32,000 nucleotides of DNA from an uncultured Actinomycetota bacterium (GCA_963697905.1 OY969101.1:2358347-2390346), one strand, 5' to 3'; shown: positions 10,523 through 30,036, numbered from the stretch's first letter. Notes: generated by a model from the letters alone, not told the origin. Numbers and translations: made by a program.

Positions 10523-10535
10523 GGGCATTCGACCT

Positions 10536-11584: not shown

Positions 11585-12642
11585 GTGCCGACCTGCCGGC
11601 CGGCCGCCGGCAGCGGCCAGACCCGGGACAACCCCCAGCGCAGCCGATCGCCGGTGCGGTAACGCGGCGGACCCGGCAGCGACATCAGCAGGCCGCCGGC
11701 CGCCGAGTCGAGGCAGTAGGCGGTATGCGGGCCGCGGAAGGCCACCGAGGTGATCCGGCCGGCCAACGGGCCGCCCTCGGACACCCAGTCCGGCCGGACC
11801 AACAGCTGCCGGATTCCGTCGGCCGGTGCGGCACTGGCCACCAGGTCGCTTGTGCCGTCCGGTAGATCCACGGCAAGCGTGCCGTCGCCGGCTGGCCGCA
11901 CCGGCGCCTGGAGCACCGCGTACGGCCCGGTCAGCCCCGCCGCGGCCAGGCTGACCGGCTCCTCGTACAGCTGCGCCGGCCTGCCGAACTGGATCACCCG
12001 GCCGCCGTCCAGCAGGGCGATCCGGTGGGCCCTGGCCAGCGCCTCGGCCGGATCGTGGGTAGCCAGCACGACCGCCGCCTCGGTGCGCCGCTGCTCGGCC
12101 ACCACCAGCTCCTGAAACGCCTGTCGCAACGAGGTGTCCAGGTGCGCGGTCGGCTCGTCCAGCAGGTACAGCCTGGCCGCCCGGGCCAGCGCCCGGGCCA
12201 GCCCCACCCGTTGCTGCTCACCGCCGGACAGCGCGGCCGGCCGCCGATCCGCCAGCCGAGCGATGTCGAGCCGGTCGAGCTGGCGCATCGCCTCGGTGCA
12301 GGCGTCCCGCCGAGACCGGCCGGCCCGGCGCAGCGGATAGGCGACGGTGTCGAGCACCGAGAGGTGCGGCCAGAGCGCCGCGTGCTGAAAGACCATGCCG
12401 ATGTCGCGACGCTCCGGGGGCAGGTCGTCGGAAACCCGTTTGCCGTGCAGCCAGATCTCACCGCCGGACGGGCGTACCAGGCCGGCGACGGCGTGCAACA
12501 GGGTCGACTTGCCGGACCCGGAGACGCCGAGCAGGGCGACGATCTCGCCGGCCGCGACCTCGACCGAGGTGCCGGCCAGCGCCGTGACCGATCCGTACCG
12601 GACCACCAACTCCCGACAATGCAGGGCGTTGCTACCAGGCAC
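11554..12642 (-). CDS. ABC transporter ATP-binding protein (FbpC/PotA-like, Fe(III)-type importer)
   Basis: Walker A GVSGSGKSTLL, signature LSGGEQQRVGLARAL and Walker B LYLLDEPTAHLD are present, with a C-terminal regulatory domain. The start overlaps the permease stop by 11 nt. Confidence 0.9.
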   Translation of the reverse strand: MPGSNALHCRELVVRYGSVTALAGTSVEVAAGEIVALLGVSGSGKSTLLHAVAGLVRPSGGEIWLHGKRVSDDLPPERRDIGMVFQHAALWPHLSVLDTVAYPLRRAGRSRRDACTEAMRQLDRLDIARLADRRPAALSGGEQQRVGLARALARAARLYLLDEPTAHLDTSLRQAFQELVVAEQRRTEAAVVLATHDPAEALARAHRIALLDGGRVIQFGRPAQLYEEPVSLAAAGLTGPYAVLQAPVRPAGDGTLAVDLPDGTSDLVASAAPADGIRQLLVRPDWVSEGGPLAGRITSVAFRGPHTAYCLDSAAGGLLMSLPGPPRYRTGDRLRWGLSRVWPLPAAGRQVGTQPSAVIAAG

Positions 12643-14326: not shown

Positions 14327-14331
14327 GCCGG

Positions 14332-15303
14332 TCAGTGCCCGAAAACCGAGGCGTATTCGGTCAGCACCGACTGGTAGCTGTCGAACAGGCTCGGCCAGTC
14401 CGGTTGCGCGATCGGGCTGCCCGCCGGGATCGGCGGCCCGTCGAGGCCGGGCAGCGTCGGGTAGGTGTCCTGGGCCGCCATGATCGTCTGCGCGGCGCGG
14501 CTGGCCGCGTAGTCGGCGAACCGAGTCGCCATCGGGGACAGGCCCTTGCTGGTGGTGACCCCGATCGGCGCGTAGATCGCGGCAGCGCCCGGCCGCGGCC
14601 AGCTCACCGTGATCGGCGAGCCCTTGCGCTGGGCGGCGTAGGCGGCGTTGGCCAGCGTCACCCCGGCCAGGTACTTGCCCTGCTCGACGCCGGTCAGCGT
14701 GTCGGCCGGCGCGCTCAACTGCACCGCCCCGTTGCGCTTGAGGTGCCGGTAGTAGTCCAGGCCGTAGCCCGGCGTGGCCGCCAGGTAACCCAGCAGGCCG
14801 AGCGCCGATGCCGCGAAGCTCGGGTTCGGCAGCGCCACCCGGTTGCGGTACTCGGGCTTGGCCAGGTCGGCCCAGCTGGCCGGCGGCTGGACACCGGTTC
14901 GGGTCACCACCGTCAGGTACAGCAGGTCGATGCCGGTGAAGTGCGACGTCCGGTAGGCACTCGGAATGTCGGCGGCGTTGGGCGGGCTCCAGGCTCGCAG
15001 CAGGCCCTGGGCGTCGTAGCCGTGCATGGTCAACGGGTCGCAGGCCCAGATGACGTCGGCCTTGACGCCGCCGGCGCGTTGGTCGGCGGCCACCCGGGCG
15101 TTCAGTTGGCCGGTAGGTGCTCGGAACACGGTCACCTTGGCGCCGTCATTCGCCTTCTCGAAGCCGGCCACCACCGCCTGCTCGACGTTCGCGCTGGCGC
15201 AGGTGTAGAGCGTCAGCGAGGAGCCGGCCTGGGCGCTGGTCGAGGTGCAGCCGGCGATCAGTGTGGCCAGCAGCACCGCCGCTGCGATCAGCCGTACGGT
15301 CAC
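14332..15303 (-). CDS. ABC transporter substrate-binding lipoprotein (Fe(III)/FutA-like family)
   Basis: GTG at 15303 is preceded by ggaagggaggga. The signal peptide plus lipobox reads VTVRLIAAAVLLATLIAGCTS. The mature part is typical of iron(III)-type SBPs. The long N-terminal extension of ORF 14332..15795 is rejected. Confidence 0.85.
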   Translation of the reverse strand: MTVRLIAAAVLLATLIAGCTSTSAQAGSSLTLYTCASANVEQAVVAGFEKANDGAKVTVFRAPTGQLNARVAADQRAGGVKADVIWACDPLTMHGYDAQGLLRAWSPPNAADIPSAYRTSHFTGIDLLYLTVVTRTGVQPPASWADLAKPEYRNRVALPNPSFAASALGLLGYLAATPGYGLDYYRHLKRNGAVQLSAPADTLTGVEQGKYLAGVTLANAAYAAQRKGSPITVSWPRPGAAAIYAPIGVTTSKGLSPMATRFADYAASRAAQTIMAAQDTYPTLPGLDGPPIPAGSPIAQPDWPSLFDSYQSVLTEYASVFGH

Positions 15304-15329
15304 GGCGTCCCTCCCTTCCGGGCAGGGTC

Positions 15330-15740
15330 TCAGTTGCTGCTTCCGGCGGCGAGCCGGCCGGCCCGGTCCGGCACCTCGAGTCCGAGGATCCAGGAATGTG
15401 TTGCTACGGCCACCGGTGAGCCGGTGGGTAGCTCGGCCGCCGGCCGCGGTTGCCGGCCGTGCCGTACGTCCGGCTCCCAGCGGTGGGGGTCGTCGGTGAG
15501 GCCGAGCAGGTAGGTAACGGTGCAGTCGAGCGCGATCGCCAGCTCGGGCAGCTTGGCGACGTCCACCCCCGCGCCGTGCTCCAGGCTGGAGACGGCTCGA
15601 TTGGTGGTCTGCAGGCCGCAGCGGCCGAGCCTGGTCACCACCTGTTTTTGGGTCAGCCCAAGTTCCACACGGCGCTGCCGCAGCCGCCTGGTGATCAGCA
15701 CTTGCCGATCGGGCCACGATTCCGGGTTGATCTGACCCAT
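15330..15740 (-). CDS. XRE-family HTH transcriptional regulator
   Basis: RRLRQRRVELGLTQKQVVTRLG...SSLEHG...LPELAIALDCTVTYLLGL is a classic HTH_XRE domain. The gene ends 27 nt upstream of the SBP gene on the same strand. Confidence 0.8.
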   Translation of the reverse strand: MGQINPESWPDRQVLITRRLRQRRVELGLTQKQVVTRLGRCGLQTTNRAVSSLEHGAGVDVAKLPELAIALDCTVTYLLGLTDDPHRWEPDVRHGRQPRPAAELPTGSPVAVATHSWILGLEVPDRAGRLAAGSSN

Positions 15741-15819
15741 GGTGCCTCCCGTGGGGAGATACCCCGATCCTGAACCGGGTCGGCCGATCCGTCAATACCA
15801 GAGTCCGGGAATGTGTCGC

Positions 15820-16092
15820 CTACGGCTCGGCCGTGCCCATGTCGGCCAGCGCGTGGATCTCGTAGCGAGCGAAGTTGAAGATCGGCGCCCTGGCCAGCAG
15901 CCGCTCGAACTCCTCGTGCGAGTCAACCTGGTAGATCCAGGCACCGCCGTGCGCACCCACCACGTGATAGCGGGCCAGCACCTTGCCTTCGTTCTCCAGC
16001 GTGGCACCGTACTCGGCCATCCGGCCGACCGCCTGAGCCATCTCGCGCGAGAGCAGCGACAGTTCCATCCGCCACAGCACGAGAAACTTCAT
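15820..16092 (-). CDS. Small muconolactone-isomerase-like (ferredoxin-fold) protein
   Basis: 90-aa ORF MKFLVLWRMEL...GGAWIYQVDSHEEFERLLARAPIFNFARYEIHAL. The resemblance to the MIase family is judged by eye only. Confidence 0.5.
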   Translation of the reverse strand: MKFLVLWRMELSLLSREMAQAVGRMAEYGATLENEGKVLARYHVVGAHGGAWIYQVDSHEEFERLLARAPIFNFARYEIHALADMGTAEP

Positions 16093-16329
16093 CGCGCGCC
16101 CTTCCGGTCTGCCCGAGCCGCCAATCTGGAAGCTTCGGCTGCGCGGATCACCTGCGATGCTCGCCAGCTCGCATGATCAAGGCCACGCATGCAGGAATAT
16201 GGCCGATGGTCGAGCTGATTGCAACGGCGAGCTAGCCACAGGGGTCTGGTACGAATGAGCGGCGTGGCGCGCGAAGACCGGGAGTTCGGTAATGAGCCGC
16301 CGGCCATCTCGATCGATCCAGGAGGCATC

Positions 16330-17000
16330 GTGAAGCTTCTTCTCACCTCTGGCGGCGTCACGAACCCGAGCATCACCCGTGCCCTGACCGACCCGCTGGG
16401 CAAACCGACCGAAGAGGCCACCGCGCTGTGCATTCCCACAGCTCAGTGGGGCCACCCCATGTGCGGGCCGGCCTCGGCGCGCGGCTTCGTCAGCGGCCTG
16501 CCCCCGTGGGGCGGAATGACCTCGATGGAATGGAAATCACTGGGCCTGCTCGAACTGTCGGCGCTACCCAGCATCGGCGAGGAGCGCTGGGTGCCCTGGG
16601 TCCGAGAAGCCGATGTCCTGTTGGTGGACGGCGGAGATGCGACGTACCTGTGCCACTGGATGCACGAGTCCGGGCTGGCGCCCTCCTACCGTCACTGGCC
16701 GAGACGGTCTGGGTGGGAGTGAGCGCCGGCAGCATGGTGATGACTCCCCGGATCGGCGCCGCCTTCGTGGAATGGCCGGCGGCGAAAAGCGACAAGACTT
16801 TGGGAGTCGTCAACTTCTCGATCTTTCCCCACCTGGACGTCTTCCCGACGAACACGCTCGCCGAGGCGGAGCGCTGGGCCGCCGAGATCAACGGGCCGGC
16901 GTACGCCCTGGACGACCAAACGGCCATCAAGGTCGCCAGCGGCACGGTCGAGGTCGTCTCTGAGGGCCGCTGGAAGCAGTTCCACAACAGCCAGGACTGA
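16330..17000 (+). pseudogene. Peptidase E / S51 (type 1 glutamine-amidotransferase-like) protein, one frameshift
   Basis: GTG at 16330 follows ggagg (16321-16325). VKLLLTSGGVTN...LLVDGGDATYLCHWMHESGLA is in the frame of ORF 16219..16722. The sequence continues as LLPSLAETVWVGVSAGSMVMTP...FSIFPHLD... in the frame of ORF 16428..17000. The switch is near 16685. Confidence 0.7.
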
Positions 17001-17220
17001 CGAGACGTCGAAGGCGGCGAGTTCAGAAGCTCGTACCGCATCGCGGGCTACCGCACCCGCGTGTCGCGATGTGCTCCAGAAGCCGTCGCTATGGAGCAGA
17101 CTGCCGCGCCGCTCAAGGCGCGCAGATAGACCAGTAGGTCAACCGGTACGACACATAGCTGCCGCTTCGCCTCGAAGGGCATCGCTTGCGCTATTACCCG
17201 AGGTGCTCAAAGGTTAGGAC

Positions 17221-18186
17221 GTGACCGCAGATGAACCTGACGAATTTGGTACTCGGGATACGAACGCGCCGGACGTTCACGGTGGCACCGCGATGCCGCA
17301 GGGTGCCCTCCCTAGAACCCTTCGAGAGTTTGCGTTCTTTCCGCTTCATCGACCAGAGTTCATTGCCGATGGGGGTGAACGTGGACGCGTCGCCTGGGGC
17401 GACGTGCTCCAATCGCTCGCCGACCTCGCTGAGCTAGAGGATTGGACCGGGCAATATGACCTCGCGCGACCGCTGCCGATCCTGGACAGCTACGTCCGTT
17501 ACACCTACCAACGTCTCGTCCTCGAAGACAAAGTCGCCGAGTCGATCGACGGCGAGACAGCGGCGCTAAACACCGGGCTCCTGACTGCCCACGCGGAGGA
17601 CATCTTCGGCCTGTTCACGAAGAACCGCCAGGGGGCTCAGCCCTGGGTATTCCTCAGGTGGGCAGCCGAATCGGACAGGATCCTTCTCAGATCATTCCCC
17701 GATCCGCCGCATATGGCGGAGTACGTGTCAACAGCTGCAGACCTCGTTTACGACTGGCGACGCCCACTGAAACTCGCGTATGAGCACATACTCGTCAACA
17801 ACATCGAACGCTTTCCCGCCGAACTAGCTGAGCATCCAATGCGTGCCCGACAAGCGCTCGACCTCGCAGTCGCTTGGACGCTCAAGAGGGCGCGACGCAA
17901 CTACAAGATCGTCGTGCCTCAGTGGTACCCGCGCCTCGGGGTAGTAAGCGGCGCACAGTTCCTAATGCCGCTTGACCTCTCAGGTCGCGGCCAGGCCGAC
18001 CTGGCGCTAGTGGTCTCAGCGGTTGGCGAGACTGCCTATCGCGGCCATACGGTGCTAACGCTCGACATGGCATACACCAATGCCCGACTGGTCGCGAGGC
18101 CGGACAGCGAGTGGCTTCGGCCTGTTGCGCCGTCGATCCCCTCAGTCGAGGAAGCATTCGCAGACGCCACCGCTCTCGAACATTGA
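17221..18186 (+). CDS. DUF3825-like protein (unknown function)
   Basis: Intact 321-aa ORF in the low-GC island. LNTGLLTAHAEDIFGLFTKNRQGAQPWVFLRW...YEHILVNNIERFP resembles the DUF3825 family from memory. The start is uncertain; alternative M at codon 25. Confidence 0.5.
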   Translation: MTADEPDEFGTRDTNAPDVHGGTAMPQGALPRTLREFAFFPLHRPEFIADGGERGRVAWGDVLQSLADLAELEDWTGQYDLARPLPILDSYVRYTYQRLVLEDKVAESIDGETAALNTGLLTAHAEDIFGLFTKNRQGAQPWVFLRWAAESDRILLRSFPDPPHMAEYVSTAADLVYDWRRPLKLAYEHILVNNIERFPAELAEHPMRARQALDLAVAWTLKRARRNYKIVVPQWYPRLGVVSGAQFLMPLDLSGRGQADLALVVSAVGETAYRGHTVLTLDMAYTNARLVARPDSEWLRPVAPSIPSVEEAFADATALEH

Positions 18187-18340
18187 CCACGGAATAGCAC
18201 CCTTTGCGAGCGTGACAACGCGGCGACGCAAACCGTCGATAGGTGCGGAGGGCATGGACGATCGATCCGCGCAGATACGCCGAAATGGCGTGACGGAACG
18301 ACCGAAGTTGTCGGTCCCCGGATCGTGAGTGGCGTTCCCC

Positions 18341-21142
18341 CTATAGGTTGGCACTACTGTCCGGCGCTTGTGTCTGAGAGTCCGTGGGCGCCGTGACATG
18401 GTCGGAGTTCTTGTGGCTTCGGGGAACCGGCTGAACGTCTACGCCTGCTTCTTTTGCCCAACTCCGGAAGTAATTGCCGATGCTCCGCGTGGATTCGTCC
18501 GCCCATCTTGCACCGATGCTGTCGCGTATGGCTTTGCCGACCTCCCTTGGGGTGGCTGCCGGATCCTCAGCCAGGAGTTGCAGGCCGGCCTTGCCGCCAG
18601 GGGCTCGTGCGAGCAAGGAACGCAGGATCTCCGGCTGGATCTGCCCGTCTTGAATCAATCCCGGGGCGCTGACACGCACCCTGCCATCGGAGTCGACCGA
18701 AACGGCCCCTAGCGATGCGAGCGTGCGAATACCACGACGCTGCGGGTTGTTTCCGGGCTCCAGCATGATCGGCTCACCGGAAGCGAGATTGAGAAGCACC
18801 ACCCTGGCATGGCCGAGCGCCTCCTGAGGGACGCTTGGCCGCACCCTCATTGCCGAGCGTGACGAGAGGAGCAACTGACGAGCAGGCTGATCATCATTTG
18901 TGACCGAGAACATGCCCCCTCGGCGGGCAACTAGTCCCGCATATTCAAACCAGCCGAGGAACACTCGTGCGTACACCCTCCACGTATTCTCAGTAACAGC
19001 CACAGCAGGGAATGCCGTTGGCAGCGCCCGAGCATAATGCTCCACGTCAACTTGGCGATCTAGCTTTTCGTCCAGGTCTTTCAACGTTGTAAACGCGCGG
19101 TGCCGTCGGAGCGACCGGCCGATTTGAGTTCGGATTTCCATCTCGGGATCGTTGGCGCTAATGACCTCCGGGGTGAGACGAACCCGCAGCGGCTCGTAGA
19201 TAGCCACGCCTAGCAATCGAAGTTCGCGCGATAGGTTAAAGATCACCTTGTCGCTTGTTTGGAGCTCCTGAGCCAATTCTCCAACCGAAGCACTTCCGCC
19301 ACTCCGCATCACTGAGGGAAGTAGTCGGGCAACTGAATTTGGGGTCTGCCGGAGGATGTACGAATCCTCGACGGGTACGCGGCCGGTGGTCAGGTAGTCG
19401 CGGAAAGTATCCCAGTACGTGTCGATTCGATCGCCGATTTGCACGAGCAGCCTGCGGTCTACGAGCGACTGTACGGCCTGGTGGTTATACCGTTCTGTGA
19501 CCTCGCTGGCCGCGATCGGCGCATACCTCGCGACGTAGTTCAAGATCTCCCGCTGGCTTGGGGTCAACTCGGCAAGGTCGGCTTCGAAGAGCGACTGAAC
19601 GTTTAGCGCCTCCGCGAGGAGTTTCTCCTGCGTAACTCCCTTGCTCAACTCACTAATGACGTGATCAGACAACTTTTTCAGCAGCCATGGCAAACCCTGG
19701 CTGTACTCGCGAAGTCGGTCGCGCAGATCTCGGACGAGTTTTGCATTCGCTCGTCTTTCCAGACGGTCGATAAGGGTCGAGACTTCTTTGGAGCCGAAAG
19801 GCTCCATAACAAGGACCCTGGCATTGGCGCGGATCTCGTCTCGAAGTTGGTAGGGATGCCCCTCTGTCCACCCAACGAGATCGGTCTTCCAAGCGAAGCC
19901 CACGATAAGGGGGATCCGGAGCTCACGTATGCCCATGCTGAGGTCCCTGAAAGCTCGAGTGAGCTCCTCAGATCGAAAAACGTTTTCGAACTGGTCGAAG
20001 AAGATCAAAAGCCGCTTGGAAGGATCGCCCCAGTCGGCCTTCCCCAACGACTGAAGTGCGCTGGGGAGGCTTGCCCAGCTCGCAGCTGCGGGTTGACGGA
20101 GAATTCCTTTGGCCTCGGCCTCGATCGCTGCCTTCTGGAGAACCTCCACGACGTACCGAGGCGTTGATGCGGTGCGCGTGTCCATGACCAAGGCGTGTCC
20201 GGCCTGGCTTGTGATCATGTCGGCAAATTTCAGCGCAAGGCTGCTCTTACCCCAGCCCGACCTCGCATTGAGGACATACACCAGCTCACCTTGTGCGATG
20301 GCTGCCGCAAGCTTCGCCATCAGCTCGTTACGGCCAACAAAGAATTTCGGCGATGCGGGGAGTTGATATTGGAAGTCCTCGCTGCTTCCTTGCACTGTGG
20401 CCAGGATGTGAGACTCGATGGAGGGCGTGGGAGGGGGCGTTGGTAGCGCTTCTCGTCCATCAACGACACGAAGGCCTTGCGCGTAGGAATCAGACTCCAA
20501 CAGCTCGCGGGTGGGCGCCGGAACATTGCCCGATGCTGCCCAGCACAGGACCTGGATCGGGACCCGAGATTCTGGGTCAAGCTCCAGAACCGCGCTGTAT
20601 GTTCCGTCCGCAGTAATGACGACAGCTGGGTCGCTCGTCGTTCGACTCGTGAACGGGGGACTAGTTATTAAGCCCTCAGATTTCAGCCTTTCAACGATTG
20701 CGTCTGCTGGGAGGTATAAGAACTTGCCGTCCTGTCTGGTAATGGCGCGAGCTTTCTCCTCACCGTCGGGCGTGAGTCTTGGAAGAACCACCATCAGTCC
20801 CAAGGCATCTGCATCGTCGAAGCGCTCCACTGTGAGCTTTCCGTAGAAGCTCGTTAGCTCCGTTGCTTTTACAGCGCGGCCGTAGACCTTGCACTCAGCG
20901 ATCGCGTGGGCTGCAGAGAGCCTATGAGTTGTGGTGACGTCGAGTTCGATTCCTTCAGATGTCACATTGATCTTTGAGGCCGATGGAGGGTCGTAGCCAT
21001 ATATCCGAAGAAGGTTGCCGACGAAGACCTCGAACAGATGCCCTCGAGCGTTGGCGGCCGCCTGCGGCGTCGCACCGTCGGCGAGCACGATGACGCGCAC
21101 CTGCTCCACGGTGTTTTGTTCCACGATACAAAAGCCTGCCAT
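18341..21142 (-). CDS. Mrr-type restriction-endonuclease domain fused to a STAND (NB-ARC-like) P-loop NTPase, winged helix and ~330-aa C-terminal region; candidate defence protein
   Basis: Intact 933-aa ORF in low-GC DNA. Nuclease core at aa 34-86: GHLFEVFVGNLL...EGIELDV...AIAECKVY. Pre-P-loop FVGRNEL. Walker A ARSGWGKSS (aa 293-301; nt 20240-20266). Walker B LLIFFDQFE (aa 378-386). STAND-like motifs VLVMEPFGSKEV and SQGLPWLLKKL. wHTH-like LTPSQREILNYVARYAPIAASEV. Confidence 0.7.
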   Translation of the reverse strand: MAGFCIVEQNTVEQVRVIVLADGATPQAAANARGHLFEVFVGNLLRIYGYDPPSASKINVTSEGIELDVTTTHRLSAAHAIAECKVYGRAVKATELTSFYGKLTVERFDDADALGLMVVLPRLTPDGEEKARAITRQDGKFLYLPADAIVERLKSEGLITSPPFTSRTTSDPAVVITADGTYSAVLELDPESRVPIQVLCWAASGNVPAPTRELLESDSYAQGLRVVDGREALPTPPPTPSIESHILATVQGSSEDFQYQLPASPKFFVGRNELMAKLAAAIAQGELVYVLNARSGWGKSSLALKFADMITSQAGHALVMDTRTASTPRYVVEVLQKAAIEAEAKGILRQPAAASWASLPSALQSLGKADWGDPSKRLLIFFDQFENVFRSEELTRAFRDLSMGIRELRIPLIVGFAWKTDLVGWTEGHPYQLRDEIRANARVLVMEPFGSKEVSTLIDRLERRANAKLVRDLRDRLREYSQGLPWLLKKLSDHVISELSKGVTQEKLLAEALNVQSLFEADLAELTPSQREILNYVARYAPIAASEVTERYNHQAVQSLVDRRLLVQIGDRIDTYWDTFRDYLTTGRVPVEDSYILRQTPNSVARLLPSVMRSGGSASVGELAQELQTSDKVIFNLSRELRLLGVAIYEPLRVRLTPEVISANDPEMEIRTQIGRSLRRHRAFTTLKDLDEKLDRQVDVEHYARALPTAFPAVAVTENTWRVYARVFLGWFEYAGLVARRGGMFSVTNDDQPARQLLLSSRSAMRVRPSVPQEALGHARVVLLNLASGEPIMLEPGNNPQRRGIRTLASLGAVSVDSDGRVRVSAPGLIQDGQIQPEILRSLLARAPGGKAGLQLLAEDPAATPREVGKAIRDSIGARWADESTRSIGNYFRSWAKEAGVDVQPVPRSHKNSDHVTAPTDSQTQAPDSSANL

Positions 21143-21386
21143 AGAGGTATGGATTCGAAAAATCTTGCTCTACTGCGCCGTGGCCTTGAGAGGACCAGCA
21201 AGACAGGCCGATGTGGCGGTGACACCCATCCGTAGGGCAGACCCTTCCGTCTGACGGCAGGAGCCCAGTGAAGTGCATCGCATATCGCCAGGAAGCAGCG
21301 AGGCTCTGATGCACAGAGTCGGCGGTCGCGTGGTCGTGATTGCGGAGCGCCTGCTCCGGGCTAACCTGGTTGCTTCATCCACTTGC

Positions 21387-21404
21387 TGGAGCGTCGACGC
21401 TCCA
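21387..21404. repeat. Perfect 18-bp palindrome TGGAGCGTCGACGCTCCA 40 nt upstream of the recombinase start
   Basis: Verified base by base as its own reverse complement. A role as operator or recombination core is inferred only. Confidence 0.4.
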
Positions 21405-21443
21405 AGGGCCGCCGGGCTCTGGCCTGAAGTCCCGGAGGTCGCC

Positions 21444-22364
21444 ATGACCACCAGTATCCCGTCGACCGACATCGCCGTGTCGGTCGAGCCGCTGTTCACC
21501 TCGAACGAGAGGATCGCGTTGGCCGGCTTCCTGGCCGGCTACAGCGGCCTGACCCGCGACGCCTACGCACTGGATCTCCGGATGTACACCGCCTGGTGTC
21601 AGCAGCACGACCTGCACCTGTTCCAGGCCCGCCGCGCAGACATCGAGTGCTTCGGCCGCGAGATGGAGGCCCGCGGCCGGGCCCGGGCCACCATCGCCCG
21701 CCGGCTGTGCACCATCGCCGGCTTCTACCGCTACGCCGTCGAGGAGGAGCTGCTCGAACACTCCCCTGCCGTGCACGTGCGCAGGCCCCGGCTGGACCAC
21801 GAGTCCCACGCGGTCGGATTGGACCGCAACGAGGTCGGCTCGCTACTGGTCGCCGCCGGCCTCGGCGCACCGAACGAGCACGCCCTGATCTCGCTGCTGG
21901 CGATTAACGGCCTGCGGATCTCCGAAGCGCTCGGCGCCGACATCGACAAGCTGGGACTCGAACGCGGCCACCGCACCCTGACCGTGCTGCGCAAGGGCGG
22001 CAAGATCGTCACCATCCCGCTGGCACCGCGCACCGCCCGAGCGATCGACCTGGCCATCGGCGAACGACTCGACGGCCCAATCTTCCTCAGGCTCGACGGG
22101 CAACGGATGGACCGCCACTGCGCCAGCCGCATCGTGCGCCGGGTCGCCCGCCGCGCTGGCATCGGCAAGCCCATCGGCCCACACACCCTGCGCCACGCCT
22201 TCATCACCGCAGCCCTCGACGCCGGCGTCGCGCTGCGAGACGTGCAAGAAGCCGCCTCCCACGCCGACCCACGAACCACCATGCGCTACGACCGCGCCCG
22301 CGTCTCCCTCGACCGACACGCCACCTACATCGTCGCCGCCTACCTCGCCGGCGCCGCCCGCTGA
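21444..22364 (+). CDS. Tyrosine-type site-specific recombinase/integrase (XerC/D-like)
   Basis: Start at MTTSIPST (ATG 21444) within ORF 21273..22364. SAM-like N-domain (YALDLRMYTAWC, TIARRLCTIAGFYRY). Catalytic residues are in context: NGLRISEAL (R), HTLRHAFIT (H-x-x-R), ASHADPRTTMRYD (H...Y). GC is high, unlike the flanking island. Confidence 0.9.
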   Translation: MTTSIPSTDIAVSVEPLFTSNERIALAGFLAGYSGLTRDAYALDLRMYTAWCQQHDLHLFQARRADIECFGREMEARGRARATIARRLCTIAGFYRYAVEEELLEHSPAVHVRRPRLDHESHAVGLDRNEVGSLLVAAGLGAPNEHALISLLAINGLRISEALGADIDKLGLERGHRTLTVLRKGGKIVTIPLAPRTARAIDLAIGERLDGPIFLRLDGQRMDRHCASRIVRRVARRAGIGKPIGPHTLRHAFITAALDAGVALRDVQEAASHADPRTTMRYDRARVSLDRHATYIVAAYLAGAAR

Positions 22365-22499
22365 GCACACCCGCCCCGCCGGCCGGGCGGCCAACCGCCG
22401 CTCGGCCGCGCGGACGGACAAAGCGCCCGGAGGCCTCGATATGCGCGGCTGGCTGTCTTCGAGGGACTGGCCGATGATCGGTGTAATTGATCATGGCTT

Positions 22500-22769
22500 C
22501 TAGTTGGTGTTGAGGGGGACGATACGGTCTTCGAAGGTGATCGCGAAGGCGTTGAGTGCCGGCTTCCACCGCATCGCCCAGCGGGCCCGGCCGCGGCCGG
22601 TCGGGTCCAGTGATCGGGTGACCAGGTAGAGGCACTTCAGGGCGGCCTGCTCGGTCGGGAAGTGACCGCGTGCGCGGACCGCGCGGCGGTAGCGGGCGTT
22701 GAGCGATTCGATCGCGTTGGTCGAGCAGATGATGCGCCGGATTGAGGTTAGGGGTGTCATCGCCTTCAA
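22500..22769 (-). pseudogene. IS256-family transposase, C-terminal fragment only
   Basis: IRRIICSTNAIESLNARYRRAVRARGHFPTEQAALKCLYLVTRSLDPTGRGRARWAMRWKPALNAFAITF is the conserved IS256 Tnp C terminus. The 5' three quarters of the gene are absent. Sequence composition changes abruptly at about 22765. Confidence 0.85.
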
Positions 22770-22862
22770 TCACTAGTACGCCAGCCAGGGATCGCCCGAC
22801 TGCTTTACTTCTCTTCTGGGCTCTGCACGTGTCGTAACAAGTCTTTCTTAACGGAGTGCTAG

Positions 22863-25667
22863 ATGATCACTTTCGATCCAGAGTCAGCCGATGGTCAGTG
22901 GCTCCATCAACGCCTCGTCGAAGTGGTGGCCGATAAAGTCGTTGCTGCATCCGTGGCGAAAGAAGCCGACCCGGTGCGACGTTTCCTGCTGATTGGAGAC
23001 GAGTGGTCCGGTCGCACACGAGTCCTTCGACTCGTCACGCAGTCGCTCCAAGATCACGACGGGTTTAACGACGTTTCGGTGCTAATCCTCGATCCGTTTA
23101 CCGACTTGCAAGTCTCACCTAGCGGCGGTCCTCCTGGCCGAACCGCCAAGCAGGTCGGAGACCTCCTACTCTTCCTATCGACGATTTTCGCACCGGTTCC
23201 TCACCTCGACATCATGAGCAAAGTGCTCGCCGTGTCGGGCGCTGGAGCCGTGGTAGCGGGCGACAACAGCGAGCGCCGAATGCTAGAGGCACGCCCGCGC
23301 GCGCCTGGTACGGTCAACGAGTTTGTCAACCAAGTGCGTGGGATTATCCGAATGCGACCCACCGTCGTGATCTGCGTGTTAGACGTGGAACGCGTTGGTT
23401 CCCCGGCGGACGCGCGAGAGCTGATAATCAAACTGCAGCTTCTTGAGGCGGTACACGACTGCCGCGTAATCACCGTCCTTGCCTGCAGCATGGAAACTGC
23501 ATCGGAAGTGCAGACGTCTGGTGTCCAACGCTGGACACCGATCGTGATACCCGAGGTTACTGCCGAGCAAGCTGCGCGCTGGCTCGGTCAACCACTCGAC
23601 TTGGCAGCCTCGGTCTGCGACTTGGCCAAAGGCCGGGCAGCTCTGATCGTCGCGTTCTCGCGTGTGCTCGCCACAGCACAATCGCTCCCGTCGGCCGAGC
23701 AGGCAGCCGCGTTCCTCAAGTCCTGGGCCCGCGACTACGTTATCGACACTGTCCTTGACTCTGCACGCGAAGAGGGATTCGACAAGCAGTCTGAGCAACG
23801 TGTGCTGGATTGTCTGGATGCTGCCGCTCTGCTTGCGCTGCAGGGCGATCAGTGCAGACCATCTGTACTCGACGCCGCAGGCCTTGGCGCGGCACGGCGC
23901 GACCTCCAGCGAACCGGTCGCAACGCACTGCCCGAGCGATGGTTGATCGAGCGCATCCTGACCACAGGCTGCAAGGAAGAACAATGGCGCCTACCGCGAC
24001 TGATTGCGACGTTGCTGCGCGAGAACCTGTTCACTCGCATAACGCAGGCACGCGCCGACATGGCATCGGCCGATGCCTCACCCGACATCAAGCCGCCAAT
24101 CATTCAGCGCACAGAACATTATCTCAACGCGCTGTTCACGTCCTGCTGGAACAACTTGGCGTTGATCAGTCCGCACGCAGTGTTCGCGGCAAGTGCCGTA
24201 GGGCGGATGGACTTTGTCGAGTACCACCGACGGGCCTGCGCTCAAGCGGCGCTAGATCGACGCGTCGACGACGCCCACTTGCTCGCCCGCCAGTTGCGTG
24301 GTCACGGATTGAAGCGCTGGGATGACGCGCACCTTATGCAGACGGCGCAAGATGTCTTCAATACGCTCAGCCTAACGCCACAGGAGTACCAGCCCCGGAA
24401 GATTCGTCGCGATCTGCTGGCCGTAGCCACAGCGGCACGAAAGTTACGACAGGATCACCGACCAGACTTGGACACACCGCTCAAAGACCTTAGCAGCGCT
24501 GCGCAGCACCGGATGCGGAGTGGAGTCCGCCCCGAAGCAACGCGACTATTGGCCGATGTGCTGCTCGTGCTTGAATCGCGTGAACAGCCGCTGGACGCCT
24601 TCGTGCCAAGCCGGGAGCTCATCGACCTCGCGCGCGACCTGCCCGACGTTCGGAGGTTGGTACTTTTATGTGTCGTGGGGGCGACCTATAATGCTGCCAA
24701 TTTCGATATCGCTCTTCATTGCATCTTGCACCTGACCAGTGATTTGGCGTTCGGCCCGGGGCCATGCTCCATTCACGGTGGCGCGGCCAGCCGATTGGAG
24801 ATGACTGCATCCTTACTCACCGTCGCGTGCACGGGGTGGAGCGGTGATCGGCAGGCCGCACGCACAGCCAGCGGCAAGTGTGTACGGGCAGCAATGCGCG
24901 CTGCTATGGCAGACCCCGACCCGGCGCGCGGCACCGGCCTAGCTATATCCATCATGCGAACACCTATCAGCTACGACCGAGACTGTGAAGAGTTTTCGAT
25001 CTCGGTCCTCGTACGAATCGCCCGCCGAGCATCGTCAAGCGACCGTGCCCGACTTTCCGCGCTCGCCTACTTGATCTCCCACATGAGATCCCGGGATGAC
25101 TACGTACAACTCGCTACGGCGGCTGTTGCTGATCTGCTGCTACGCGCTGAACGCGCCGTGCCGGAAGATGAATGCTACTACTGGGCCTTCGCTGCCGACT
25201 ATCTTGAACGCGGGGTTAGTCAGCAACACGCCGATGTCTATCGATACATGGCTGCCGCACTAGCGGTCGGCCATGCCAATAGCGCTGCTCCCGCTGAACT
25301 CGCCAACCTGGACTGTGACATCGGCACCCCGAGCACGTGGCCCGCGGCAGGCGCCATCCTCACGGGCGACGGCTTCAATATCCCCATCGACGCCTCGCAC
25401 CGCGACTACGCGTTTTCTCTCGGGAGAGGGACACGTGCATCGTCGGCGGCGCTTGTCGATGAGTGGCTAGACCGCTTGATCGACCTCCTGCCTTTGCCTT
25501 GGTTCGATAACCTCGACCTACTTCGGCTGGAAACCGAAATTCTGGTGCGAGAGGCCCTCGCAGATGCAGGCAGGATAGTAAATTGCGACCCATTTGACAT
25601 CGCAGAACGCTTCGCGCTGCTCGACGCATTGCCGGACTTATTGGGTTCCGCCCCTAGGATCCCGTAG
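22863..25667 (+). CDS. Large STAND-like P-loop NTPase with variant Walker A (GxxxxGRT) and a long alpha-helical C-terminal region; function unknown
   Basis: Intact 934-aa ORF in the lowest-GC DNA of the window. FLLIGDEWSGRTRVL (aa 41-55; P-loop nt 22995-23018). Walker-B-like TVVICVLDVE (aa 167-176). STAND-like IVIPEVTAEQAARWL. No recognisable effector domain. The family was not recognised. Confidence 0.55.
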   Translation: MITFDPESADGQWLHQRLVEVVADKVVAASVAKEADPVRRFLLIGDEWSGRTRVLRLVTQSLQDHDGFNDVSVLILDPFTDLQVSPSGGPPGRTAKQVGDLLLFLSTIFAPVPHLDIMSKVLAVSGAGAVVAGDNSERRMLEARPRAPGTVNEFVNQVRGIIRMRPTVVICVLDVERVGSPADARELIIKLQLLEAVHDCRVITVLACSMETASEVQTSGVQRWTPIVIPEVTAEQAARWLGQPLDLAASVCDLAKGRAALIVAFSRVLATAQSLPSAEQAAAFLKSWARDYVIDTVLDSAREEGFDKQSEQRVLDCLDAAALLALQGDQCRPSVLDAAGLGAARRDLQRTGRNALPERWLIERILTTGCKEEQWRLPRLIATLLRENLFTRITQARADMASADASPDIKPPIIQRTEHYLNALFTSCWNNLALISPHAVFAASAVGRMDFVEYHRRACAQAALDRRVDDAHLLARQLRGHGLKRWDDAHLMQTAQDVFNTLSLTPQEYQPRKIRRDLLAVATAARKLRQDHRPDLDTPLKDLSSAAQHRMRSGVRPEATRLLADVLLVLESREQPLDAFVPSRELIDLARDLPDVRRLVLLCVVGATYNAANFDIALHCILHLTSDLAFGPGPCSIHGGAASRLEMTASLLTVACTGWSGDRQAARTASGKCVRAAMRAAMADPDPARGTGLAISIMRTPISYDRDCEEFSISVLVRIARRASSSDRARLSALAYLISHMRSRDDYVQLATAAVADLLLRAERAVPEDECYYWAFAADYLERGVSQQHADVYRYMAAALAVGHANSAAPAELANLDCDIGTPSTWPAAGAILTGDGFNIPIDASHRDYAFSLGRGTRASSAALVDEWLDRLIDLLPLPWFDNLDLLRLETEILVREALADAGRIVNCDPFDIAERFALLDALPDLLGSAPRIP

Positions 25668-26062
25668 CGCGCTCACGATAACAGCCGATTCTGGCAGCTG
25701 CGCACCTCGGATAGCACCCACTCGCTCTTGTCCTGGCTCACCCCTCAGGCATGCAGCGGTCGCCTGCAATTGCCCATAACGCGTGAGCGCAACTCACAGA
25801 TATCGCTCGGCGAGGTGCACAGAGTCGGCAACTTGTTTGACTCGACCTCGGGAGCCTGGGAGCAGCATCCTCAGGCGTTGGACCTGGTCGGGTTCGCTCG
25901 CGAATCGGCTGCCGTCGTCCTGGCGATGTTCTGGCTCACGAACGGCCCGCGGCTCGATCGGGTCCACCCGGTGAGGTTGTGGCTCAAGAGAGGTCTGCGC
26001 TGCCGGTAGTTGCATTGCCCTCCTCGCCAAGTCCGGTCCGGTGAATTTGAGGAGGCGAGGGC

Positions 26063-27100
26063 GTGGCTGACGATGTGATGATCAGCGTGGATCCGCACAA
26101 GGCGAGCAACACCGCGGCGGTCATGGACCCGGTCACGAAGATCGTGATCGACAGCCGGCGGTTCACGAACACGGCTGCCGGCTACCGGCAGCTGCGTGAG
26201 TTCAGTGGCCGCTGGCAGCAACGCCGGTGGGCGGTCGAGGGCTGCCACGGCGCCGGCCGATCGCTGGCCCAACGCCTGGTCGCCGACGGCGAGCTGGTGC
26301 TCGACGTCCCGGCCAAGCTCGCTGCTCGGGTGCGGGTCTACTCCCAAGGACACGGCCGCAAGACCGACGTCAACGACGCGGTCTCGATCGGACTCGCCGC
26401 GCTGAACAGCGGCAGCGTGGTCCGCGGTCCGCACCGACGACACCCTCGTTAGCCTGCGGCTCTTGTCCGACCGGCGTGACGAGCTCGCTGCCCTGCGGAC
26501 CCAGGCCGTCTGCCGCTTGCACCGTCTGCTGGCCGAACTCACGCCGGGCGGCACCCACCGCGGCCTCAAGGCCAGCCGAGCCCAGCAGCTACTGGACAAG
26601 CTGCGACCCGCGGACCCGGTCGCGCAGGTCCGGCTCCAGCTCGCCGCCCAGCATCTGGAAGACATCTGCGCACTGGACGCGAAGATGAAGGCCGTCCGCG
26701 CTCAGATCGAGGAGCTGGTCAAGACGACCGGCTCGCACCTGGCCGACCTCTACGGAGTCGGCCCGGTGATCGCCGGCCGCATCCTGGCCGAGGTCGAGAC
26801 CATCGACCGGTTCCCCTCAAAGGACCACTTCGCCTCCTACAACGGCATCGCGCCCATCGATGCCTCCTCCGGCGACCACGTCCGACACCGGCTGTCCCGA
26901 GCCGGGAACCGGCGGCTGAACCACGCGCTCCACATGATGGCGGTGACCCAAATCCGCTATCCCGAAAGCGAGGGCCGCCGCTATTACGAACGCAAGCGAT
27001 TGGAGGGCAAGACCCCGAAAGAAGCGCTGCGCTGCCTCAAGCGTCGACTCTCCGACGCCGTCTACCGGCAGCTGCTCGCCGACCGGCCGAGCACAATCGA
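26063..27100 (+). mobile_element. IS110-family transposase gene, disrupted by a 7-bp tandem duplication and probably 3'-truncated
   Basis: The N-terminal part MADDVMISVDPHKASNTAAVMD...GRKTDVNDAVSIGLAAL is listed ORF 26063..26452. It continues as DDTLVSLRLLSDRRDELAALRTQ...LYGVGPVIAGRILAEVETIDRFPSKDHFASYNGIAPIDASSGDHVRHRLSRAGNRRLNHALH...LKRRLSDAVYRQLLAD in listed ORF 26463..27302. ggtccgc is duplicated at 26419-26425 and 26426-26432. The tail after about 27085 is low-complexity read-through. IS ends are not defined. Confidence 0.85.
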
Positions 27101-27103
27101 TGC

Positions 27104-27283
27104 GTGCGGATCACCTACGACCGCGCCGCCAACGCGGCCTACATCTACCTCACCGACGCCGAACTCGAAGCCGGACACACCACCACCCTCGCGGCGCTCC
27201 CTCCCGGGATCGACGGCTTCGTCGCGCTCGACTGGCAAGACGACCGCCTCGTCGGTATCGAAGTCCACATCACGAACGACTAG
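27104..27283 (+). CDS. DUF2283-like small protein (59 aa)
   Basis: My own translation from GTG 27104: (M)RITYDRAANAAYIYLTDAELEAGHTTTLAALPPGIDGFVALDWQDDRLVGIEVHITND*, with TAG at 27281-27283. This matches the MRITYD...AYIYL...LD.D..GRLVGIEV pattern I associate with DUF2283. It is one codon below the track cutoff and is masked by the IS110 read-through ORF. Confidence 0.6.
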   Translation: MRITYDRAANAAYIYLTDAELEAGHTTTLAALPPGIDGFVALDWQDDRLVGIEVHITND

Positions 27284-27434
27284 ATCAGCGACCAACGCTT
27301 GACAGAGAGGAGCCGATCTGTGCGGCCTGTGGATGCCGAGAATGTGGTGCGCGGGGCGCGGTTGGGTGAGTACGCGTGTCCTTAGCCAGGCCGACCAGCG
27401 TTGCGCAACCGAGCGAGCAACGAGGACCGGAAAT

Positions 27435-29689: not shown

Positions 29690-29693
29690 GTCG

Positions 29694-30020: not shown

Positions 30021-30036
30021 CGCACTCCTTCGGTGT

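Follow-up and report, generated by a model that had tools for sequence, protein, structure and literature searches.

The question raised by this locus is whether a single long gene, lying in DNA that differs in composition from that of its host, encodes a complete defence system. The first-pass annotation of the window (the whole 32,000-nucleotide stretch of DNA from an uncultured Actinomycetota bacterium that was analysed) had described the gene as an Avs-like candidate, in which an Mrr-type nuclease and a STAND NTPase precede an unrecognised C-terminal sensor. The observation itself is confirmed here, and the interpretation is partly supported. As had been claimed, the 2.8-kb ORF is intact; a mechanical ORF listing gives 933 aa from an ATG start on the minus strand (Table 1), and the translation agrees with the peptides quoted earlier. 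An identical protein is already annotated in a public contig of 4.74 Mb, where an alternative start (V7/GTG) yields 927 aa. A protein database search returned 710 relatives, the best 120 of which share 47-100% identity over 86-99% of the query, and the target is therefore a real gene and not a chance ORF. Promoter and terminator signals at the locus did not rise above shuffled expectation.

The base composition of the gene is foreign to the host. Its GC content is 58.8%, compared with 72.0% and 71.7% in the flanks (positions 6000-15000 and 27300-32000, respectively), and its GC3 is 0.66 versus 0.85-0.95 in host-like genes. The GC counts given previously for individual lines were reproduced exactly (58.3% for line 19261, 55.0% for 19981, and 80.0% for 13001). 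The surrounding region is a low-GC mobile island that also includes a split peptidase S51 pseudogene and a DUF3825 gene. The recombinase and IS debris reported as neighbours could be identified as a tyrosine recombinase, an IS256 remnant, and a split IS110 transposase. Host-like genes border the island, encoding ABC transporters on one side and uricase/amidohydrolase proteins on the other, and its boundaries showed no tRNA, no convincing flanking att-like direct repeats, and no Rfam family. The neighbouring 934-aa ORF was considered as a paralogue of the target and rejected (BLASTP E 0.52).

Table 1. Positions of the gene, its domains, and the surrounding features within the window.
Feature	Residues	Position	Strand	Basis or remark
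Whole gene		18341..21142	-	933 aa; 927 aa from V7/GTG; 710 relatives
Mrr-type PD-(D/E)xK nuclease core	16-137	20732..21097	-	putative catalytic E38, D68, E83, K85
Small beta-rich domain	141-230	20453..20722	-	AF2; no Pfam match
P-loop nucleotide-binding domain (NBD)	263-450	19793..20356	-	nSTAND1 match, motifs, AF2
Helical lid domain	451-525	19568..19792	-	invariant G483-L-P485-W486 (GxP), H494
First winged helix (WHD of NTPase module)	526-590	19373..19567	-	Y576-W-D-x-F-R581 motif; AF2
wH2 + helical hairpin + wH3	598-748	18899..19351	-	conserved half of C-terminal array
Disordered linker + wH4	749-834	18641..18898	-	most variable folded segment
Terminal four-helix bundle	835-900	18443..18640	-	invariant W880; AF2
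Low-GC (62.9%) mosaic island		15800..27300	.	context, outside the system itself
Tyrosine recombinase		21273..22364	+	Phage_integrase 8e-23; divergent from target
IS256/Transposase_mut C-terminal remnant		22500..22769	-	IS remnant in island
Orphan 934-aa ORF		22863..25667	+	in island
Split IS110 transposase		26063..27302	+	in island

Domain organisation of the protein

The AF2 model of the whole protein has a pLDDT of 86.6 and a pTM of 0.70. The N-terminal domain is modelled as an alpha-beta-beta-beta-alpha-beta nuclease core (pLDDT above 90). Its four predicted catalytic residues are invariant in a 64-member alignment, as are all of the motifs named in the first-pass annotation. In a broader conservation set of 73 members that share 22-55% identity, E38, D68, and E/D83 are each kept in 72/73 sequences and Lys85 in 70/73, with Arg in two more. 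For the query, the motif residues of an Mrr-type core are thus in place, although its own match to Mrr_cat (PF04471) scores 18.5 bits (E 2.3e-3), under the Pfam cut-off of 21. The assignment holds at the level of the family, as 42/42 relatives match Mrr_cat at E <= 0.1 (best 2.6e-10), and the family profile finds the PD-(D/E)xK protein 1y88 among PDB sequences (E 0.009), and the E-C-K triplet aligns in this match. The following segment, previously taken for a linker of ~170 aa, is in the AF2 model a folded beta-rich domain (strands 141-145, 169-177, 180-188, and 195-201; pLDDT about 90) that is succeeded by a linker of ~30 aa. This domain is acidic, with a family mean net charge of -4, and variable, with a mean pairwise identity of 0.26.

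Residues 264-478 match nSTAND1 (PF20703) with 46.7 bits (cut-off 27.1; E 4.6e-12), a match that spans only positions 12-216 of the 379 in the profile; 40/42 relatives also match, the best at 6.8e-15. The NBD contains the motifs F268-V-G-R271, Walker A G296-W-G-K299-S-S, Walker B LLIFFD383-Q-F-E386, and W418...D421. The GxGKSS sequence, Asp383, Glu386, and GxPW occur in 73/73 members, and both F268-V-G270-R271 and G483-L-P-W-L-L are invariant in the 64-member alignment. An hhGRxxE-type motif before the P-loop and a GxP motif in the helical domain are features of STAND NTPases, reportedly recognised by Leipe et al. in 2004, and the target has both. AF2 models a five-stranded NBD, a helical lid, and a winged helix with pLDDT values mostly of 85-95, and the domain scan of the relatives gave a weak MarR_2 match in the WHD region (525-562). 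The lid and this first winged helix are the most conserved parts of the protein (mean pairwise identities of 0.50 and 0.51), and strong purifying selection acts on the nuclease and NTPase residues throughout the 73 members. The above-threshold nSTAND1 match, the Walker motifs present in 73/73 members, and the winged helix that follows them bear out the proposed STAND NTPase. In its fold, the module is nearer to classical AAA+ proteins than to solved STAND receptors: a Foldseek search against solved structures placed RuvB, ORC/Cdc6, RFC, and PAB2304 at the top, and no STAND receptor among the top 50.

The C-terminal ~330-340 residues, which the first-pass annotation could not assign, fold confidently (pLDDT 89.8 for this region alone) and can now be placed, by the AF2 model and Foldseek, as an array of three further winged helices and a four-helix bundle. 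The earlier view that the region does not resemble TPR sensors is upheld by the same two analyses. The wH2-wH3 pair is conserved to the same degree as the enzyme core; Trp721 and Trp731 are kept in 73/73 members, and what is presumed from the model to be the recognition helix of wH2 bears Ser630, Asn636, Arg639 (Arg or Lys in 72/73), and Arg642. A sub-threshold AAA_assoc_C match (E 0.0039) covers this pair over 2-117 of the 119 profile positions, and the sub-threshold Pfam matches of the tail are all to DNA-binding wHTH families. The linker and wH4 show a mean pairwise identity of 0.22-0.23 across the family and 0.30-0.34 among close relatives, with a column entropy of 2.0-2.8 bits versus 0.4-1.5 in the NTPase, and the wH4 segment is a candidate specificity determinant. 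Foldseek searches of the tail model against PDB and BFVD returned generic winged-helix arrays only, with nothing at E <= 1e-3. The top PDB matches are tandem winged-helix arrays such as SelB WH1-4 (5.6e-3), together with the DNA-recognition domain of the nickase N.BspD6I; others include the winged-helix proteins ESCRT-II, UFL1, and cullin-type. The C-terminal domains each have a small positive net charge of +2 or less. We infer that the tail acts as the sensor. It is short, and its wH2-wH3 pair is conserved like the core, unlike the large TPR-like sensors of most Avs proteins, an observation that speaks against an Avs-like reading.

Family distribution and gene neighbourhoods

The C-terminal module is confined to the architecture of the target, with 448 representatives among 1.84 billion proteins, and no shuffling of effectors or sensors was seen across the family. 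Among Avs families, exchange of effectors is common. The idea that the tail might move between proteins as a shuffled module or exist by itself was rejected, because full-length matches all lie at about residues 585-915; short tail matches are N-truncated fragments that begin inside the WHD motif. The 185,579 species genomes covered contain at least 173 relatives, a rare and patchy distribution over at least eight phyla that include Actinomycetota, Pseudomonadota, Planctomycetota, Acidobacteriota, Chloroflexota, and Desulfobacterota. The family is frequently encountered in Actinomycetota (Streptomyces, Rhodococcus, and Mycobacterium among them), and relatives are found on 15 plasmid records, among them the conjugative pBVIE01.

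None of the neighbours in the window (DUF3825, the tyrosine recombinase, and the 934-aa ORF) recurs beside 80 relatives, and de novo clustering of the neighbouring ORFs produced no family in more than 13 of these 80 loci. The commonest neighbour families are mobile-element genes, namely GntR (13 loci), integrase (10), FtsK/Tra (9), and resolvase (5). A dedicated methyltransferase partner was also rejected: Eco57I-type methylases lie beside just 5/88 relatives (directly upstream in L050, L056, and L084) and are mutually unrelated. With no conserved partner gene, the target is a single-gene unit, as had been proposed.

Locus by locus, relatives are found beside Septu-like PtuA/HNH and SIR2 genes, in a type IV secretion conjugative element, within a DISARM-like operon adjoining GmrSD, in an IS91/integrase island, and in an AICE adjoining AbiEii. 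Further neighbours are TrwC relaxases, a TIR-CHAT-STAND-TPR protein, and Eco57I/MmeI-type methylases, and PADLOC matches among neighbouring genes comprise dGTPase, DRT UG29, Type I/II/IIG R-M, parts of MADS, and HEC-05. The relatives thus reside in defence islands and mobile elements and not in housekeeping contexts, an association that reflects qualitative inspection of the loci and not a matched-background statistic. The association with ICEs and plasmids fits a function in the service of the element equally well.

A PADLOC scan of the protein matched 0 families at E <= 0.01, Avs1-5 included, and scans of NCBIfam and PHROGs gave no matches. In PDB sequences, the single protein retrieved only chance amphiphysin matches and the family profile nothing beyond the nuclease match to 1y88, so no solved chain of an Avs or other STAND protein was matched. 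Literature searches found no paper describing the family, and the databases name its members only "restriction endonuclease" or "nSTAND1 domain-containing NTPase". Given these generic names and its absence from PADLOC 2.0, the family is missed by the detection models tested. The label of an Avs-like candidate stands for the nuclease-STAND-C-terminal architecture and the stand-alone gene, and falls for membership in an Avs family (PADLOC Avs1-5) and for a TPR-type sensor. The fixed architecture, the lack of PADLOC, NCBIfam, and PHROGs matches, and the top 50 folds, which are not STAND receptors, run counter to an Avs-like reading.

A proposed defence nuclease and its alternatives

We place the probability at about one half that the target is a stand-alone, NTP-switched defence nuclease that follows an Avs-like logic outside the Avs1-5 families of PADLOC. 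The nuclease would be carried as cargo of mobile DNA and most likely acts against phages or incoming plasmids. In the proposed mechanism, the N-terminal nuclease would be held inactive in a resting monomer until a ligand made or introduced by an invader binds the C-terminal array, with its winged helices, two conserved and one variable, and its helical bundle. Once released by this binding, the nSTAND1 NTPase would bind ATP and oligomerise, and the nuclease domains gathered in this way could cut DNA, such that either the invader is destroyed or the infected cell is killed. Because the family is widespread and resides largely in defence islands and conjugative elements, a single-gene anti-phage or anti-plasmid system is credible but unproven.

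The trigger could be nucleic acid, which leads to a possible, albeit doubtful, alternative: an NTP-dependent restriction enzyme, Type IV-like or modification-dependent, that reads nucleic acid directly. Here the winged-helix array would bind foreign-modified, structured, or ended DNA or RNA, the NTPase would license assembly, and the Mrr domain would cut the bound molecule, so that the invader is destroyed without suicide of the host. The defence-nuclease core is common to both accounts, which differ in the trigger (nucleic acid and not protein) and in the outcome. The winged helix is the commonest nucleic-acid-binding fold, and Mrr itself is a Type IV restriction enzyme. A tail built on winged helices throughout, with its matches to RNA-binding SelB, the N.BspD6I domain, and DNA-binding Pfam families, is consistent with such a ligand, as are the Asn636, Arg639, and Arg642 kept in the presumed recognition helix and the slightly positive charge. 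The invariant architecture and conserved wH2-wH3 pair suggest, in addition, a ligand that does not escape by evolving away. However, the fold matches are all weak, the charges are small, and winged helices also mediate protein contacts, as the ESCRT-II, UFL1, and cullin-type matches illustrate; moreover, the NTP-dependent Type IV enzymes known to us use translocating GTPases or helicases and not STAND switches. Prokaryotic winged helices fused to nucleases are documented to sense adenine methylation (PMC11037411), and a recent survey leaves open the sensing of molecules other than proteins by some STANDs (Lee et al., Nature 2026, PMC13581612). We tentatively entertain an immune nuclease of the bacterial NLR-like (STAND) kind, with a winged-helix receptor that recognises nucleic acid and not phage protein. 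Foreign structures in DNA or RNA, DNA ends, or modifications could serve as its target; the backbone would be held by the conserved wH2-wH3 pair, and specificity would come from the hypervariable wH4. If true, this would be a STAND with a non-protein ligand that links Type IV restriction to NLR-type switching.

We judge it unlikely that the protein serves the mobile elements themselves, whether in exclusion, addiction, or competition among ICEs, AICEs, and plasmids (for example, by destroying competing elements or cells from which the element has been lost) or as an ORC/MuB/TnsC-like ATPase that selects DNA targets. Such a role would account for the frequent AICE-like and type IV secretion contexts, the carriage on plasmids, the TrwC relaxase directly downstream in two loci (L003 and L019), the divergent arrangement with the recombinase in the window, and the resemblance to the DNA-loading AAA+ proteins ORC/Cdc6, RuvB, and RFC. 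Yet the gene is not fixed in position with respect to integrase, relaxase, or replication genes and has no constant partner among them, many loci without element core genes have R-M, Septu, or DISARM genes, and AICEs and ICEs bring replication and transfer proteins of their own. A STAND switch that carries a conserved nuclease of active appearance is the signature of a conflict effector and not of a target selector. Very improbable is a housekeeping protein of DNA repair or regulation, or a functionless gene decaying in a recombination-prone region. STAND NTPases with HTH outputs do include ordinary regulators of the LuxR/MalT/AfsR types, one of which adjoins a relative (L015), but the family is rare and patchy, its composition in the window is foreign, its neighbourhoods are those of mobile elements or defence, and the frame is intact and full length with every predicted catalytic residue present.

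For the preferred reading of an NTP-switched defence nuclease, the consequence would lie in the receptor. Nearly all characterised antiviral STANDs read phage proteins through large helical-repeat sensors, and the target family pairs a compact, evolutionarily fixed architecture with a predicted receptor made of winged helices. If defensive, it would constitute a new sensor class for bacterial NLR-like immunity and a tractable test case for the triggering of STAND switches by nucleic acid. Defence systems of Actinomycetota affect phage therapy, strain engineering, and the efficiency of conjugation.

Comparison with known systems

The Avs families reportedly described by Gao et al. in 2022 include Avs2 and Avs4, with N-terminal Mrr-like nucleases. 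Like Avs2 and Avs4, the target carries in one polypeptide an N-terminal PD-(D/E)xK effector, a STAND NTPase (NBD, helical, and WHD), and a C-terminal region; like Avs genes, it stands alone in defence islands and mobile elements, and the same mechanism of ligand-induced oligomerisation that activates the nuclease would be expected. In contrast, it matches neither the PADLOC Avs1-5 models nor solved Avs/STAND chains, neither its effector nor its tail varies within the family, its NTPase is of the nSTAND1 clade, and its tail consists of ~340 residues of winged helices in place of a TPR-like solenoid at least 400 residues long. In most Avs proteins the sensor is a large TPR-like array, and the sharing of sensors across clades is reported from the survey of 589 clades (PMC13581612). 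As at least 198 STAND clades already count as defence-associated, another nuclease-STAND fusion is expected and not surprising.

The nSTAND1 clade takes its definition from conflict systems that counter invaders (Kaur, Burroughs, Iyer and Aravind, eLife 2021, PMC8195603), and the NTPases of the target and of nearly all relatives scanned belong with it by the Pfam match given above. Described nSTAND1 proteins have effector-associated or death-like adaptor domains and FGE/C-lectin or repeat sensors, and their systems are often multi-gene and found in multicellular bacteria (PMC8195603). The target NTPase, unlike these, adjoins an Mrr nuclease and a winged-helix array directly in one polypeptide, without an adaptor or partner gene.

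The BrxC/DUF499 ATPases of BREX and BREX-related systems likewise place a run of wHTH domains after a STAND/ORC-Cdc6-type ATPase, and some DUF499 proteins have an N-terminal HEPN nuclease (NAR 2026, PMC12839542). The target shares the order of ATPase and wHTH series, and its nearest solved NTPase folds are ORC/Cdc6 and RuvB. It differs in that its effector is a PD-(D/E)xK nuclease and not HEPN, in giving no PADLOC match to the BrxC/PglY models, and in having no obligatory methyltransferase, helicase, or PglZ partner, none of which is present in the window.

The pairing of an Mrr-type catalytic domain with winged helices is finally reminiscent of Mrr/Type IV enzymes and of winged-helix-fused restriction endonucleases. 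Relative to these enzymes, the order of domains in the target is reversed, with the nuclease N-terminal; a STAND NTPase of ~330 residues is situated between the nuclease and the winged helices, and these number four instead of one.

The gene and its low-GC island

The Mrr–nSTAND1–winged-helix gene was taken to be intact in the first-pass annotation, and the ORF listing of the window bears this out: the frame comprises 933 codons from an ATG start, and every peptide quoted from it is found in the translation. A public protein (P0001) on a 4.74-Mb contig is identical to the product, at 927 aa from a GTG at codon 7. The GC counts reported earlier were reproduced exactly (58.3% in line 19261, 55.0% in line 19981 and 80.0% in line 13001). 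The gene has a GC content of 58.8% versus ~72% in the host-like flanks, and a third-position GC of 0.66 versus 0.85–0.95 in the flanking genes. Mosaic in make-up and ~11.5 kb long (~15.8–27.3 kb of the window), the low-GC stretch separates ABC-transporter/hydrogenase genes from uricase/amidohydrolase genes. As had been proposed, a recombinase and insertion-sequence debris share the island; the IS256 remnant and split IS110 transposase point to the decay of insertion sequences around an orphan 934-aa ORF. The peptidase S51 frames look like a frameshifted pseudogene. No tRNA, convincing flanking repeats or Rfam family was found for the island.

Features of the window, predicted domains of the target (aa numbering, AlphaFold2 model) and loci of relatives
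Feature	Position	Strand	Remark
DUF5655 gene	678-1604	+	second small low-GC patch (~60%)
Peptidase S51 homologue, split	16219..16722 and 16428..17000	+	homology over two overlapping frames; left island edge
DUF3825 gene	17221-18186	+	7e-66; low GC
Target	18341..21142	-	in low-GC island
Tyrosine recombinase			in low-GC island; Phage_integrase 8e-23; host-like composition
IS256/Transposase_mut C-terminal remnant	22500-22769	-	only profile positions 327-373 of 379
Orphan 934-aa ORF	22863-25667	+	GC3 0.66
IS110-family transposase, split	26063-27302	+	DEDD_Tnp_IS110 ORF and Transposase_20 ORF
PD-(D/E)xK core	aa 16-137		alpha-beta-beta-beta-alpha-beta
Small acidic beta-rich domain	aa 141-230		without assignment
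Linker	aa 231-262
P-loop domain	aa 263-450		five-stranded
Helical lid	aa 451-525
First winged helix	aa 526-590
Second winged helix (wH2)	aa 598-657		then helical hairpin
Third winged helix (wH3)	aa 698-748
Disordered linker	aa 749-774
Fourth winged helix (wH4)	aa 775-834
Four-helix bundle	aa 835-900		then disordered tail
Rhodococcus sp. PAMC28707 (L084, CP039254.1)	2480-21680		relative inside same-strand DISARM-like operon
Streptomyces justiciae (L021)	5168-9424		1419-aa TIR-CHAT-STAND-TPR gene directly upstream of relative
Frigoribacterium locus			Septu-like ATPase/HNH pair and SIR2 protein (annotated neighbourhood)
Arthrobacter locus			conjugative element with type IV secretion (annotated neighbourhood)
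Paludibaculum locus			IS91/integrase island (annotated neighbourhood)
Dactylosporangium locus			AICE, AbiEii alongside (annotated neighbourhood)

The 934-aa ORF lacks a Pfam, PADLOC, NCBIfam or PHROGs match, and in a search of 5.8 billion protein clusters it retrieved only itself, making it an orphan. Near its N-terminus, 'LLIGDEWSGRTRVL' resembles a degenerate P-loop and 'VVICVLDVE' a Walker B motif. Kinship with the target was rejected (BLASTP E 0.52), and the ORF never adjoins the target's relatives. The DUF3825 gene, convergent with the target at a distance of 155 nt and absent beside its relatives, encodes a protein matching phrog_11623 (2.5e-32), a functionally uncharacterised family of phage proteins. 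Elsewhere in the window, the DUF5655 protein has a weak NucS_C-like (PD-(D/E)xK) N-terminal match, and its gene may be another foreign nuclease gene.

Domain layout and the C-terminal winged helices

The domain layout was derived from an AlphaFold2 model built on an alignment of 64 relatives (mean pLDDT 86.6, pTM 0.70). The proposed order of nuclease, STAND NTPase and C-terminal region holds across the family, with Pfam Mrr_cat matching 42/42 relatives (best 2.6e-10) and nSTAND1 40/42. The target itself scores 18.5 bits against Mrr_cat, just below the cut-off of 21, and 46.7 bits against nSTAND1 (cut-off 27.1) in a match limited to the first half of the profile. A search of PDB sequences with the family profile aligned the E-C-K triplet with that of the PD-(D/E)xK protein 1y88 (E 0.009). 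The NTPase motifs comprise F-V-G-R before the P-loop, a Walker A GxGKSS, a Walker B in which D383 is followed three residues on by E386, and G-L-P-W in the lid. Among 73 full-length members from species-representative genomes (22–55% identity to the target), all keep Walker A, D383, E386, GxPW, W418, D421, H494, W721, W731 and W880, and the nuclease residues are nearly as constant (E38, D68 and E/D83 in 72/73, K85 in 70/73). This retention of catalytic and nucleotide-binding residues indicates strong purifying selection on both predicted enzymatic activities.

Modelled alone from 20 sequences, the C-terminal tail (aa 592-912) reached a pLDDT of 89.8. In a Foldseek search of the PDB no match reached E <= 1e-3; those that ranked highest were all multi-winged-helix proteins, led by SelB WH1-4 (5.6e-3) and including the DNA-recognition domain of the N.BspD6I nickase, RPC62, UFL1/DDRGK1, ESCRT-II, IdeR and the N-terminal winged helix of O-methyltransferases. 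A viral structure library gave generic winged-helix proteins only, and Pfam gave only sub-threshold wHTH families, of which AAA_assoc_C aligns weakly, almost full-length, over wH2-wH3 (E 0.0039). These results describe a winged-helix array rather than a TPR solenoid or a curated family, in agreement with the earlier remark that the region is unlike TPR sensors. Searching 1.84 billion representative proteins with a tail profile yielded 448 matches at E <= 1e-3. In full-length matches the module always lies at approximately residues 585-915 of 900-950-residue proteins, and the short matches are N-truncated fragments whose start falls within a conserved motif in the first winged helix, Y-W-D-x-F-R-D-Y-L; the tail is thus confined to this architecture. 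Alignments to the 80 genomic relatives start at target residues 1-21 in all but one, which aligns only from residue 309, and no swapping of effector or tail was seen in either set. Mean pairwise identity is ~0.50 for the lid and first winged helix, ~0.40 for the nucleotide-binding domain and nuclease, and 0.32-0.36 for wH2 and wH3. The linker and wH4 are the most variable folded part (0.22-0.23); comparing close relatives, the entropy of their columns is 2.0-2.8 bits. What is new here is that the unassigned tail is, as modelled, a family-specific winged-helix array with a hypervariable fourth unit.

Distribution and neighbourhoods of the relatives

In a motif-seeded scan covering 185,579 species, each by one genome, at least 173 relatives came to light. 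Their hosts belong to Actinomycetota (Streptomyces, Micromonospora, Rhodococcus, Mycobacterium, Microbacteriaceae and others), Pseudomonadota (Pseudomonas, Achromobacter, Lysobacteraceae, Rhodocyclaceae), Planctomycetota, Acidobacteriota, Chloroflexota, Desulfobacterota and others; the distribution is rare and patchy. None of the target's neighbours in the window recurs beside the relatives examined, and clustering of all neighbour ORFs gave no family beyond 13/80 loci, so the suggested single-gene status stands. The recurrent families (GntR regulators, FtsK/Tra proteins, tyrosine integrases and serine resolvases) are hallmarks of actinomycete integrative conjugative elements. Other large neighbours include TrwC relaxases, a TIR-CHAT-STAND-TPR protein and Eco57I-type methylases. 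A methylase encoded directly upstream was rejected as a partner: such genes occur at only 5/88 loci and the enzymes are unrelated to each other, which marks them as island neighbours.

PADLOC, run on 276 neighbour ORFs from 36 loci, identified a dGTPase, a UG29 reverse transcriptase, Type I/II/IIG restriction-modification (R-M) components, MADS-like genes and HEC-05. Relatives are present in 15 plasmid records, among them the conjugative Burkholderia plasmid pBVIE01, where a full-length copy is annotated "restriction endonuclease"; the same search found none in phage records. The family includes WP_168430625.1, WP_136171535.1 and ABO59599.1, and its proteobacterial homologues include Bcep1808_6711 on pBVIE01 and those of Pseudomonas sp. 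MIACH and Achromobacter deleyi. With R-M, Septu, DISARM-like, AICE and plasmid settings, the anticipated defence and mobile context is consistent, the evidence being qualitative. In the Rhodococcus operon the relative lies between a 1527-aa Eco57I/MmeI methylase, itself preceded by an SNF2 helicase, and a 2122-aa DEAD/DUF1998 helicase, with GmrSD and UvrD following; here it may be an accessory or backup nuclease within a multi-gene system.

Two further arrangements were observed. In S. justiciae, the upstream gene (AAA_16/NACHT/nSTAND6 in its STAND region) places two different STAND conflict genes side by side. In Desulfobacterales MAGs (L067-L079), a conserved same-strand ORF of ~140-160 aa lies 60-800 nt downstream of the relative at 13/13 loci; confined to that divergent subclade and absent elsewhere, it could reflect lineage synteny or a clade-specific partner.

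Proposed mechanism and comparison with known systems

The folds, conserved catalytic residues, fixed single-gene architecture and context are computed. We propose, with a probability of about 0.5, that the target is a self-contained, NTP-switched nuclease on mobile DNA, in conflict with phages or plasmids, whatever its trigger. If the analogy to STAND immune proteins already characterised holds, the C-terminal array would bind a ligand, the NTPase would exchange nucleotide and then oligomerise, and the clustered Mrr domains would cut DNA. Autoinhibition, oligomerisation, substrate and phenotype are read from this analogy, and we infer the defence role.

The main alternative keeps that role and supposes direct recognition of nucleic acid by the winged-helix array; the target would then be a restriction enzyme of a Type IV-like kind, dependent on modification or structure. 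We entertain it tentatively: the winged-helix fold of the tail, its SelB and N.BspD6I matches, an N/R/R helix kept in wH2, a slight positive charge and the unshuffled modules all point this way, but every fold match is weak, the charges are small, and winged helices bind proteins too. Association with ICEs and plasmids, together with ORC/RuvB-like fold matches, would also suit service to the mobile element itself (exclusion, addiction or target selection); this we consider unlikely, given that the position relative to element core genes varies and that many neighbourhoods are of R-M, Septu or DISARM type. Distribution, composition and conservation all contradict a reading as a housekeeping or decaying gene, which is very improbable. 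The remaining probability allows for an explanation not considered.

By sequence criteria (nSTAND1 above threshold, motifs and a three-subdomain module), the target belongs to the STAND superfamily. Among the 50 best Foldseek matches to the NTPase fold there was no STAND receptor; of the structures solved, those closest to it belong to the classical AAA+ DNA-handling proteins RuvB, ORC/Cdc6, RFC and PAB2304. The label "Avs-like" suits the putative working logic (architecture, single gene) but not membership: the target has no PADLOC match and falls outside the modelled Avs1-5, the family profile found no solved Avs chain among PDB sequences, and the tail is not a repeat-type sensor. BrxC/DUF499 proteins of BREX-type systems share the layout of an ATPase with a wHTH array, and some DUF499 ATPases carry an N-terminal HEPN nuclease (PMC12839542); the target, however, has neither a match to their profile nor an obligatory partner. 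With Mrr/Type IV enzymes it has the catalytic domain and winged helices in common, although the domain order is reversed and a STAND switch inserted.

In our literature search no account of this family came up. Lee et al. (Nature 2026, PMC13581612) defined 589 STAND clades, 198 of them defence-associated; because Mrr-containing proteins were among the seeds and sensor clustering was restricted to >= 400 residues, the family may lie inside their tree yet outside the sensor catalogue, if the region measured after the NTPase is < 400 residues. In view of the diversity already known, a nuclease-STAND fusion as such was to be expected; what is unusual is a putative receptor made of winged helices in an architecture that does not vary. 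The discussion of Lee et al. (PMC13581612) left non-protein sensing by some STANDs open, and the target makes the question of whether a bacterial STAND can sense nucleic acid directly testable.
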